Shown here: piece by piece, positions 5,659 through 25,988 of the stretch
How the letters are laid out: each line of letters begins with the position of its first letter
Position numbering within the stretch: position 1 is the stretch's first letter
Source: Escherichia coli
Lineage (GTDB): Bacteria > Pseudomonadota > Gammaproteobacteria > Enterobacterales > Enterobacteriaceae
DNA: 64,000 nucleotides
Reading direction: 5' to 3' (one strand)
Assembly: GCF_013122565.1 (NCBI RefSeq)
Contig: NZ_CP053258.1
Position numbers and translations under genes: made by a program
Notes under the pieces: model-generated
The model's input: only the letters and a program-made list of their open reading frames with translations
Told to the model about the DNA's origin: nothing
Databases searched by the model: none

Positions 5659-6971
<1,313 letters not shown>

Positions 6972-22712: not shown

Positions 22713-24542
22713 CTACTCTTCGTCATCGCCATCAACATGTGCACGAATCAGCGCCATAAACGGTTTGCCAAAGCGTTCCAGCTTGCGCATCCCAACGCCG
22801 TTAACGCTGAGCATTTCGCTGGCAGTGATCGGCATCTGTTCAGCCATCTCAATCAAGGTCGCGTCGTTAAACACCACGTACGGCGGGACATTGCTTTCAT
22901 CGGCAATCGATTTACGCAGTTTGCGTAATTTGGCGAACAGTTTGCGATCGTAGTTGCCGCCGAAGGATTTCTGCATCGCTTTCGGTTTGAGCGCCACGAT
23001 ACGTGGCACGGCAAGTTGCAAAGAGGATTCGCCGCGCAGCACCGGACGCGCAGCCTCTGTCAGTTGTAGGGCAGAATGCTGGGCAATATTTTGCGTCACC
23101 AGGCCGAGGTGAATCAGCTGGCGGATCACGCTCACCCAATGTTCATGGCTTTTATCACGGCCCATGCCATAGACTTTCAGTTTGTCATGACCATAGTCGC
23201 GGATACGCTGGTTATTAGCGCCACGAATCACTTCCACCACATAACCCATCCCAAACCGCTGATTCACCCGACCAATGGTGGAAAGGGCAATCTGTGCATC
23301 GGTTGAACCATCGTACTGTTTCGGCGGATCGAGGCAAATATCGCAGTTCCCGCACGGCTCCTGCCGCCCTTCGCCAAAATAGTTCAGCAATACCAGACGA
23401 CGGCAAGTTTGCGCTTCGGCAAAAGCGCCCATCGCATTGAGTTTATGACGTTCGATATCCTGCAACTGCCCCTGCGGCTTCTCTTCCAGGCAACGGCGCA
23501 GCCACGCCATATCCGCCGGATCGTAAAACAGCATCGCTTCCGCGGGCAGGCCATCACGCCCGGCGCGTCCGGTTTCCTGATAATAGGATTCGATATTGCG
23601 CGGAATGTCAAAATGCACCACGAAGCGGACGTTAGGTTTGTTGATGCCCATGCCGAACGCCACCGTCGCCACCACAATTTGCAGGTCATCGCGCTGGAAT
23701 TTCTCCTGCACGTCGGCGCGAATATTATTTTCCAGCCCGGCATGATAGGCCGCCGCGCTGATACCCTTGCTTTGCAGACGCGCGGCGGTGTCTTCTACTT
23801 TCGCCCGACTGTTGCAGTAAATAATCCCCGACTTACCGCGTTGTTCCTGCACGTAGCGCATCAGCTGATCGAGAGGTTTGAACTTCTCCATCAGCATGTA
23901 GCGAATATTCGGACGGTCAAAACTGCTAATTTGAATCAGCGGATCGTTCAGCCCCAGCAGGCGCACGATATCCTGGCGCGTGGTGTCGTCGGCTGTGGCG
24001 GTCAGCGCCATAAACGGCAGCGTCGGGAACCGCTGGCGCAACTGACCGAGCGCGGCATATTCCGGGCGGAAATCGTGGCCCCATTGGGAGATACAGTGCG
24101 CTTCATCAACGGCTAATAACACCGGATTCCAGTGCGCCAGATGCTCAAGAAAGTTATCCAGCATCAGGCGTTCCGGCGCGATATACAGTAAGCGAATTTG
24201 CCCGGTGCGACAGCCTGTCATCACGTCAAGTTGCTGCTCGCGGGTTTGCGTCGAGTTAAGGCACGCCGCCGCCACGCCGTTGGCTTGCAGTTGATCCACC
24301 TGATCTTTCATCAACGAAATCAGCGGTGAAACAACCACAGTAAGGCCGTTTAGCAATAAGGCAGGAATTTGATAGCAAAGGGATTTTCCGCCACCAGTGG
24401 GCATGACAACCAGGCAATCGCGACCGGAAAGCACAGTGTCGATAATTTCTTCCTGGCCGGGGCGAAACTGTTGGTAGCCAAAGGTTTCTTGTAAAACCTG
24501 TTTAGCTCCGGACTCCAGATTCAACACTTCCGCCTGCGCCAC
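22713..24542 (-). CDS. recQ: ATP-dependent DNA helicase RecQ
   Basis: Track ORF 22713..24548 (611 aa, GTG shown as M); trimmed to the second GTG giving [11 protein letters not shown] and 609 aa; DEAH box, RQC and HRDC regions present. Confidence 0.93.
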
Positions 24543-24558
24543 ATTCACCCCGATTGCC

Positions 24559-24591
24559 TGAAATAAAAACAGGCGCTATTTTCAGCGCCTG
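24559..24591 (-). terminator. Rho-independent terminator just upstream of recQ
   Basis: Minus-strand hairpin caggcgctgaaaatagcgcctg followed by tttttatttc. Confidence 0.65.
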
Positions 24592-24611
24592 CGCGAGAAA
24601 CTGCAATGCTT

Positions 24612-25070
24612 TTAGTCTCTGAGAGGGTAATCCTGGATACTGGATTCCAGATTTGTCAGGATCAAAGCGACATCGGCATCCGCCAAACGAAACTCCGCCT
24701 GCCATATATTCTCTGACGTATGAAACGTAGGGCATAGCCCGCAAGCCAGTATCACATTGATAATAATGACATCACCGGAATACCCTGTGTATTCGAACTC
24801 CAGGCATGGCTCGGTAAATTCCAGATTTTTCTCTGGGTAGCCATCGGGAGAAGGGCGCTGCAACAATGTGGTAAACCACCTATGAAGCTTTGTTAAGTCA
24901 TATGTCCCTATTGCCGGATCTATCTTTTCAAACCGCTGATTTCCCTGCGTCACGCCCACTTTGAGGAATAACCAGTTACCATCCCAGAAATTACTGGTAT
25001 CAGGATACTGATACCCCATAACATCCAGCGTCAAAGTAACGGCCAGCTCACTATTGCTTAACGTAATCAT
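24612..25070 (-). CDS. Hypothetical 152-aa soluble protein, no family recognised
   Basis: Uninterrupted 459-nt ORF between pldA stop and the terminator, in a region that looks lower in GC than its neighbours; no obvious Shine-Dalgarno; not a gene I recall at this K-12 locus. Confidence 0.5.
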   Translation of the reverse strand: MITLSNSELAVTLTLDVMGYQYPDTSNFWDGNWLFLKVGVTQGNQRFEKIDPAIGTYDLTKLHRWFTTLLQRPSPDGYPEKNLEFTEPCLEFEYTGYSGDVIIINVILACGLCPTFHTSENIWQAEFRLADADVALILTNLESSIQDYPLRD

Positions 25071-25118
25071 AGCATTTGATTTTTAAACAAAAATTAGGTG
25101 CTGGCACTCTACCATGCA

Positions 25119-25988
25119 TTAAAACAGGTCGTTTAGCATAACTCCCACACCGACGCGGGTCTGGTTAAAGTTATAGTCGATGAGCGATTCGCCGTAACCG
25201 CTGTAGACCTGGGTATAAAGACGTACATGTTTGGTGATCGGGTAACTTAAGCCTAACTCCGCGCCGCCGTAGCCGGTGTTCCAGTTGTACTGTCCTTTCG
25301 CACTGAGCACCGCATCACCGAGGTGATAGCCGATTTTAAGCTGGTAGTAACCCATATATTTGGTGATATCCGGGTTATCGTCAGTATTACCCACCACATA
25401 CCACGGCTTCACTTCTACCAGCCAGTTACCGTTTTCTGCCATCAGGCGAGTATAAAGGCGGTTCCAGCTGCGGGAGGTCGGGTCTGAACGCCCGTTAGAG
25501 TCGTGGTTATACCCCATCTCTACATCGCGCAACGTCCAGCCTGCAAAACGGTAATCGGTGGCAAAACCGAGGAACAATTGCGGTTCGTAGTTGGTTTCAC
25601 GAAACGGTGAAGACTCTTCGCTATTGGACAGTTGCCACCAGGATTTTTGCGTATAAGACGCACCCAACACCGAGTTCGGGCCTAAAATCCCACGCCACAG
25701 CGGAAATGCCAGGCTCAACTGAAACTTTACTTCATCCTTACGCGCATTTTCCGCCCAGTCGTAACTGGCAATAGCTTCTTTATTCAGATCGCTGGTTTGT
25801 GTGTAGATGAGGTAGTTGGTGTCATAAGGATAGAGCGTGAACGGATTGTCATGCTCCTGCAGCATATTGGCGATAATACTGCCACGCACCGCTGGCGCGT
25901 CATGCACCTCTTTCACCGTTGCCTCTTGTGCATATACTGCCATAGGCAACATAAACACCGGCAACAACCAGCCCTGCAGAGTCCGCAT
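25119..25988 (-). CDS. pldA: Outer membrane phospholipase A
   Basis: 289 aa, signal peptide MRTLQGWLLPVFMLPMAVYA then OMPLA beta-barrel. Confidence 0.95.
   Translation of the reverse strand: MRTLQGWLLPVFMLPMAVYAQEATVKEVHDAPAVRGSIIANMLQEHDNPFTLYPYDTNYLIYTQTSDLNKEAIASYDWAENARKDEVKFQLSLAFPLWRGILGPNSVLGASYTQKSWWQLSNSEESSPFRETNYEPQLFLGFATDYRFAGWTLRDVEMGYNHDSNGRSDPTSRSWNRLYTRLMAENGNWLVEVKPWYVVGNTDDNPDITKYMGYYQLKIGYHLGDAVLSAKGQYNWNTGYGGAELGLSYPITKHVRLYTQVYSGYGESLIDYNFNQTRVGVGVMLNDLF

Follow-up and report, generated by a model that had tools for sequence, protein, structure and literature searches.

A WapI-family gene between pldA and recQ in Escherichia coli and its apparent deletion scar in K-12

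We found that a 152-aa open reading frame (ORF) lying between pldA and recQ in Escherichia coli contig NZ_CP053258.1 is a real gene and not a chance open frame, and that its product is best explained as an acidic member of the WapI-like immunity family, cytoplasmic and built of a single domain. (Throughout, "the window" denotes the whole 64,000-nucleotide stretch of this contig that was analysed.) The site behaves as a replaceable cassette, in which a 152-aa allele, a 160-aa allele and a deleted null allele occur between near-identical arms, and comparison with other E. coli spacers points to the short pldA–recQ interval of K-12 being the scar of a deleted WapI-like gene. As to function, we lean somewhat toward an orphan immunity protein that would block an incoming polymorphic-toxin tip and would be expressed, as such a cassette, from the pldA transcript.

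The gene, its family and its predicted fold

Features of the locus, and the settings of homologues elsewhere, are collected in Table 1. The original prediction had placed the frame between pldA and the terminator in front of recQ, with a GC content below that of either neighbor, and both points held: the translation begins MITLSNSELAVTLTLDVMGYQYPDTSNFWDGNWLFLKVGV, the same as the sequence quoted there, and GC content (GC3 in parentheses) is 46.5% (52.6%) for the ORF against 51.1% (61.2%) for pldA and 54.9% (62.6%) for recQ. The GTG used here for recQ, at 24548, is the start given in the ORF list; the RefSeq start lies two codons further downstream.

Table 1. Features of the pldA–recQ locus (positions in the window) and settings of WapI-family homologues (X, the WapI-family gene; positions following an L number are those within that locus)
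Feature	Position	Strand	Basis or remarks
152-aa ORF (459 nt), WapI-family (PF24716) gene	24612..25070	minus	ATG start; ORF list and Pfam match
pldA (outer-membrane phospholipase A)	25119..25988	minus	289-aa ORF; pldA annotation in orthologous loci
recQ	22713..24548	minus	ORF list and annotation at orthologous loci; terminator between recQ and the 152-aa ORF
Leader, pldA stop to ORF start, 48 nt, A/T-rich	25071..25118	minus	Sequence read and promoter/terminator scan
5' arm of ORF, codons 1–17, MITLSNSELAVTLTLDV	25020..25070	minus	Common to 152-aa and 160-aa alleles; protein alignment and sliding nucleotide identity
Hypervariable ORF core	24655..25019 (bounds approximate)	minus	Sliding nucleotide identity and protein alignment
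3' arm, final 15 codons and stop, …NLESSIQDYPLRD then stop	24612..24658	minus	Alignments; kept as scar in the ORF-less E. coli sampled
Segment missing from K-12-type and B2-type E. coli, 446 bp	24659..25104		No strand; leader, start codon and codons 1–137; pairwise alignments
Intrinsic terminator, common to pldA and ORF	24559..24592	minus	20 nt past ORF stop, just upstream of recQ
hpt→X→tamA, Gilliamella (four species)	L007 6294..6749; L008 8001..8456; L009 and L010 8001..8453
msrP→X→msrQ	L037 5334..5786; L038 586..1038
yfbR→X→ADP-ribosylglycohydrolase gene, Methylomonas koyamae plasmid pFW12EY	L034 6001..6516
Sel1-repeat gene→X, Leminorella
acrB-like→X			Homologue setting
DUF4352 gene→X			A glycosidase-like gene lies opposite and is transcribed convergently
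hslV-like→X			Homologue setting; one homologue adjoins an Unstab_antitox gene
X flanked by a divergent and a convergent gene			One neighbor encodes a Zn-peptidase, the other an unidentified product

The same prediction had described the ORF as unannotated-looking and of no recognizable family, and this did not stand. The protein is a full-length member of PF24716 ("Immunity protein WapI-like"; E = 1.8e-21, 77.2 bits, residues 12–149 on positions 9–138 of the 138-position model) and is annotated accordingly in RefSeq, where the product of the orthologue in strain N3 is named "WapI family immunity protein"; the accompanying guess that the gene encodes an orphan immunity protein is supported by both the Pfam assignment and this name. 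The 160-aa allele described below also matches the family (E = 5.7e-20), and precomputed PF24716 labels are found on all relatives. An identical protein is already on record (WP_171460068.1 / QJU26171.1; P0154), and 308 contigs are listed for WP_042003081.1, a 96%-identical variant that differs at six residues. These records, together with the Pfam match, a dN/dS of 0.2–0.3 and a model of high confidence (see below), make the ORF more than a chance frame. A HMMER search of 1.84 billion representatives returned 572 relatives, with identities above 50% in a single cluster, which is the pldA–recQ locus itself; outside this locus, no relative closer than about 50% identity was found among 5.8 billion proteins. 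NCBIfam gave only noise (E about 0.1), a sequence search of the PDB gave nothing at E ≤ 10, and a Pfam scan at E ≤ 10 yielded WapI alone, leaving the Imm42 profile unmatched.

AlphaFold2, run with an 81-sequence alignment, produced a model of two ββββα units (pLDDT 94.8, pTM 0.89), and the predicted fold is that of the Whirly/PUR/MRP-type sPC4L proteins (Pfam clan CL0609), with two sheets and two packed helices. The 160-aa allele (B7LU34) is predicted with the same confident fold (TM 0.90 to the 152-aa model). When searched against AFDB50, the model matched hundreds of uncharacterised bacterial proteins at TM 0.8–0.9; AFDB proteins named "Immunity protein 42" superposed at TM 0.85–0.90 (E about 1e-11, 23–25% identity), and Bacillus proteins of 141–143 aa, none of which is the WapI of strain 168, matched at TM 0.89–0.96. 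Across 81 diverse members of the family Y20, W33, W65 and P149 are invariant and E87-P88 nearly so, and the family-invariant residues are retained in both the 152-aa and the 160-aa alleles. With a pI of 4.33 and a net charge of −12 (a whole-protein value rather than a surface map), the protein is strongly acidic, as is the family (pI below 6 in 91% of 81 relatives, median 4.7).

Because MRP1/2, Whirly (StWhy2, PBF-2) and PUR-alpha are its best matches among solved structures, and because the gene lies directly upstream of recQ, one might take the protein for a Whirly- or PUR-like binder of single-stranded nucleic acid, possibly acting with RecQ in DNA repair or recombination. We regard this as quite improbable. 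Those proteins bind nucleic acids, whereas the window protein shares only 6–13% sequence identity with them and carries an acidic charge that argues against Whirly-like binding and fits an inhibitor of a nucleic-acid-cleaving enzyme; moreover, a strong terminator separates the gene from recQ, its linkage is to pldA, and in the settings examined its homologues elsewhere are never adjacent to recQ. The sPC4L fold is in any case already known in CdiI immunity proteins (PMC9424270), and sPC4L-Imm1, sPC4L-Imm2, the CdiI of Enterobacter cloacae (4NTQ_B) and CdiI 5FFP_A have the same ββββα-ββββα topology.

The ORF is under purifying selection that is far looser than that on pldA. Within the 152-aa allele class dN/dS is 0.2–0.3, not near 1, as compared with 0.01–0.07 for pldA; between the window and locus L031 the ORF shows 9 synonymous differences and 10 non-synonymous ones, where neutrality would give a ratio of about 1:3.5 (binomial p = 0.012), and the frame is intact, not frameshifted, in all of the more than 20 loci fetched from three species. 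The deletion of the gene from almost every E. coli, its lack of a Shine-Dalgarno sequence and a dN/dS well above that of its neighbors would suit a functionless leftover that is disappearing and happens to remain open in a few lineages. This is again improbable to our minds, since the frame is intact at those fetched loci and listed on hundreds of contigs, its dN/dS is significantly below 1, and both alleles keep the invariant residues and a confident fold.

The signals around the ORF are consistent with transcription by read-through from pldA, as had been proposed. The leader ends ...TTGTTTAAAAATCAAATGCT-ATG and, as also predicted, contains no convincing Shine-Dalgarno sequence, there being no GGAG-like motif anywhere in its 48 nt. 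A promoter and terminator scan found neither a sigma-70-like nor a terminator-like site in this interval; the scan also misses the pldA promoter, so its negative is weak evidence. Downstream, the terminator consists of a GC-rich 10-bp stem with 6 G-C pairs followed by UUUUUAUUU (24592..24569), with a T tract that extends to about 24559; it folds with an energy of −17.5 kcal/mol and is invariant in all four aligned strains. Judged from these sequence signals, the ORF appears to be co-transcribed with pldA. A terminator-like flag inside the ORF (24996..25015), a perfect 8-bp inverted repeat, GGTATCAG TATC CTGATACC, encoding GYQYPDT, was rejected as a real terminator because it lies within the coding frame and lacks a true T tract; it is probably due to chance. 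Between 24400 and 25300, Rfam gave only chance-level matches and thus no known RNA gene.

Loss and exchange of alleles at the pldA–recQ site

Of 5,426 complete E. coli genomes in RefSeq, only those of N3 and GF43 carry the ORF, both at pldA–recQ, and it is absent from more than 99.9% of the set with no sign of replacement. Its absence from K-12 together with a short spacer there had been anticipated, and the spacer is indeed 132 bp in K-12-like E. coli and 124 bp in a B2 strain (ATCC 25922) as compared with 570 bp in the window. The gene had, however, been taken for a small single-gene insertion between conserved genes, and the comparison reverses this direction. We sampled 29 ORF-less genomes spread evenly down a ranking of 5,425 (5,423 matching genomes beyond N3 and GF43), and all 29 match the query up to base 156–159, corresponding to window 24655–24658, which is inside the ORF. 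K-12-type and B2-type spacers both consist of 14 nt past the pldA stop, the junction, the final 15 codons of the gene with their stop (ANLESSIQDYPLRD, then stop) and the terminator, and in pairwise alignments the junction is the same in K-12 and B2, the B2 spacer being 8 bp shorter. A junction common to K-12 and B2 indicates one old deletion of 446 bp rather than an insertion in the window strain, and because E. albertii and E. fergusonii carry homologues at the same site, the K-12 state is a deletion. On this sequence comparison the window would hold either the older state or a re-imported copy. The survival of the scar could be due to constraint on the terminator, to constraint on the recQ promoter, or to chance.

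In one K-12-like locus (L002 2544..2675), the end of the WapI-like gene is still in frame and matches window 24612..24658, from which it differs by one synonymous substitution and one known polymorphic substitution and by nothing else.

The strains that carry the ORF are not an outlying clade. Compared with K-12, pldA differs at 8 of 870 positions in L031 and at 19 of 870 in the window but at 55 of 870 in B2, and recQ differs at 57 of 1,830 positions in the window and at 56 in B2. It follows from the pldA differences that recombination has carried either the scar or the intact gene from one lineage to another. Assignment to a cryptic Escherichia clade (best 14-kb identity 97.4%) was considered and rejected, as pldA and recQ are no more divergent than is usual in E. 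coli.

A scan of species-representative genomes identified a 160-aa homologue, 44% identical to the window protein, between pldA and recQ in E. albertii and preceded by the same 48-nt leader. Besides E. fergusonii and E. albertii, a few E. coli have the 160-aa allele (B7LU34_ESCF3), though none of the 5,426 complete E. coli genomes does; carriers of the 152-aa allele are E. coli and E. fergusonii. The order pldA→ORF→recQ was found at all loci fetched. The scan used a 4-sequence alignment that reaches close relatives only, and it would miss a third divergent allele in Salmonella, Citrobacter or other Escherichia species.

In a sliding-window comparison the two allele classes are mostly 93–100% identical in the flanks and arms (from the final ~250 nt of pldA through the leader and codons 1–17, and again from the last ~15 codons through the terminator into the start of recQ), apart from two 60-nt windows at about 87–88%, whereas the ORF core shows 23–65% nucleotide identity and the proteins 44% amino-acid identity. 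The leader is 98–100% identical among the window, E. fergusonii and E. albertii, as against 80–90% for pldA further upstream. Synonymous divergence shows the same discordance: for the 152-aa allele, dS between E. coli and E. fergusonii is 0.07 in the ORF and 0.41 in pldA, and for the 160-aa allele, dS between E. fergusonii and E. albertii is 0.05 in the ORF and 0.85 in pldA. Because dS in the ORF is far below that in pldA, the sequences indicate that alleles crossed species recently through the conserved arms; no mobile-element signature was found at the ORF.

Several loci show mosaicism or local rearrangement of their own. The allele of N3 and GF43 ends in IQHYPARR, as does the 160-aa allele (L001 6113..6160), while the window (24612..24660) and the K-12 scar have IQDYPLRD; the 160-aa-type C-terminus of N3 places a recombination breakpoint within the 3' end of the gene. 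A mosaic pldA (L027 2083..2952) occurs in one E. coli-labelled assembly with the 160-aa allele; its 5' half is E. fergusonii-like and 80–90% identical to the window, its 3' half 95–100% identical to the window. Between yigF and corA, N3 (L001 9973..11642) and GF43 (L004 9813..11482) have a corA fragment and YPO3983-family and DUF943 genes, an insertion for which the ORF layout of the window leaves no room. At about 6079..6483 of three other loci (L023 and L026, from records named E. fergusonii, and L024, a run assembly of the same layout), an Rpn-type (Transposase_31) gene follows rhtC, in the position of rhtB in E. coli.

Homologue settings and candidate functions

Toxin linkage is the usual basis for calling an immunity gene. 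Neither in the window nor in nine other homologue settings examined did we find an adjacent toxin gene, with no Rhs, CdiA, LXG or WapA-type neighbor; the settings were those of Leminorella, four Gilliamella species, four metagenomic contigs and a Methylomonas plasmid. In the branch examined, therefore, the immunity label stands without any observed toxin linkage, and the gene is dispensable in nearly every complete E. coli genome. The inspected homologues are lone small genes amid unrelated, mostly housekeeping genes (Table 1). In Gilliamella the WapI-family gene is 52–54% identical between lineages, as compared with 72–92% for its neighbors. In both msrP–msrQ loci it starts 4 nt past the msrP-like stop and overlaps the msrQ-like start by 8 nt, and is thus wedged inside what is normally a two-gene operon.

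Such settings bear on the possibility that the protein inhibits or regulates an endogenous enzyme, for instance a housekeeping RNase, or acts as a general decoy, with the WapI of Bacillus subtilis as one specialised case. The absence of a toxin gene from all ten settings, the hpt-X-tamA synteny in four Gilliamella species, which looks like stable vertical inheritance, and the several residues invariant across 81 diverse members would all agree with such a role. Nevertheless, we consider it unlikely, for the gene is missing from all but two complete E. coli genomes with nothing in its place, and the exchange of 44%-identical alleles across species better fits a changing external target.

The original prediction also entertained an anti-phage or addiction function, and a single-gene defense or toxin-antitoxin element might be suspected from the mere presence of a small accessory gene between core genes, from the Unstab_antitox gene beside one homologue, and from the Methylomonas homologue's surroundings, which include BREX brxA/brxB-like genes and toxin-antitoxin pairs and look like a conflict-gene island. 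This is very improbable, however, and the speculation was not borne out: neither allele matched a PADLOC family at E ≤ 1, PHROGs gave no match, tblastn against phages found no homologue, and the gene has neither a partner gene nor a mobile-element signature. Against plasmids, tblastn gave only two distant matches, in Methylomonas and Streptomyces, and the gene is thus not plasmid-borne in Enterobacteria.

The orphan immunity interpretation draws on the family, the immunity-type fold, the acidity, the relaxed constraint, the allelic divergence, the exchange and the presence/absence polymorphism. Divergent alleles between conserved arms, their exchange, and presence or absence of the gene are together a typical pattern of inter-bacterial conflict genes, and what we found is an immunity-family gene without a linked toxin that is polymorphic in the population. 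Under this interpretation, a competitor would deliver a polymorphic toxin through an Rhs/T6SS, CdiA or similar system, and the protein would bind to that toxin's C-terminal domain and block it; by analogy the target domain would most likely be an RNase or tRNase. The selective benefit would be protection of a bearer that does not itself produce the toxin. With no promoter or Shine-Dalgarno sequence of its own, the gene would ride on pldA transcription and end at the shared terminator before recQ. Its alleles move by homologous recombination among the three Escherichia species.

Of the characterised systems, the B. subtilis WapI (YxxG) is the reference for the family, having been shown experimentally to be an immunity protein to the WapA tRNase (PMC5566331; PMC3967940). 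The ORF product resembles it in size (about 140–160 aa) and in being a single-domain cytoplasmic protein with strain-diverse alleles, and is linked to it through the full-length PF24716 match, that is, through Pfam's definition of the family. However, wapI is encoded directly downstream of wapA (PMC3967940), whereas the window gene has no toxin neighbor and sits at pldA–recQ in a Gram-negative genome. Imm42 was linked by Zhang et al. 2012 (PMC3482391) to the predicted two-histidine RNase toxin Ntox18; here the likeness is structural only, in that the models superpose and both are α+β with mostly hydrophobic conserved residues, but sequence identity to the window protein is low (the 23–25% noted above) and the latter has no Ntox18 toxin nearby. 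The orphan immunity genes of Rhs, CDI and T6SS loci in Enterobacteriaceae are likewise toxin-less, polymorphic and exchanged by recombination. Those classical orphans, however, sit in arrays that follow rhs or cdi loci and are often accompanied by toxin-tip fragments (PMC3967940), unlike the window gene, which is alone inside a housekeeping transcription unit and far from rhs/cdi loci.

Meaning for the locus and the family

Our literature search found no paper on a gene at the pldA–recQ locus, and we have not found described the K-12 scar, the two-allele cassette in three Escherichia species, or the habit of this family to occur as lone genes in operons. The WapI family label is already in RefSeq, current understanding is not overturned, and a specialist in inter-bacterial competition would not be surprised; the matter is thus a modest one. 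One could go further and propose both that the site is a long-lived, trans-species immunity-cassette locus under balancing or frequency-dependent selection, with two idiomorph-like alleles and a null scar swapped through conserved arms, and that WapI-like proteins are mostly free-standing, broad inhibitors of RNase toxins, encoded by promoter-less single genes in housekeeping operons (pldA-X, hpt-X-tamA, msrP-X-msrQ, hslV-like-X, acrB-X). This combined proposal is tentative, and we would not expect it to hold in full.

The K-12 pldA–recQ spacer can be read as the scar of a gene and not as a plain spacer, and the lone-gene-in-housekeeping-operon habit of the homologues examined raises the question of what most of the WapI "immunity" family does. 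If the orphan immunity interpretation is true, rare E. coli lineages and many E. fergusonii and E. albertii would hold a stand-alone shield against the toxin of another gut bacterium, and the allele present at pldA–recQ would predict who survives whom.
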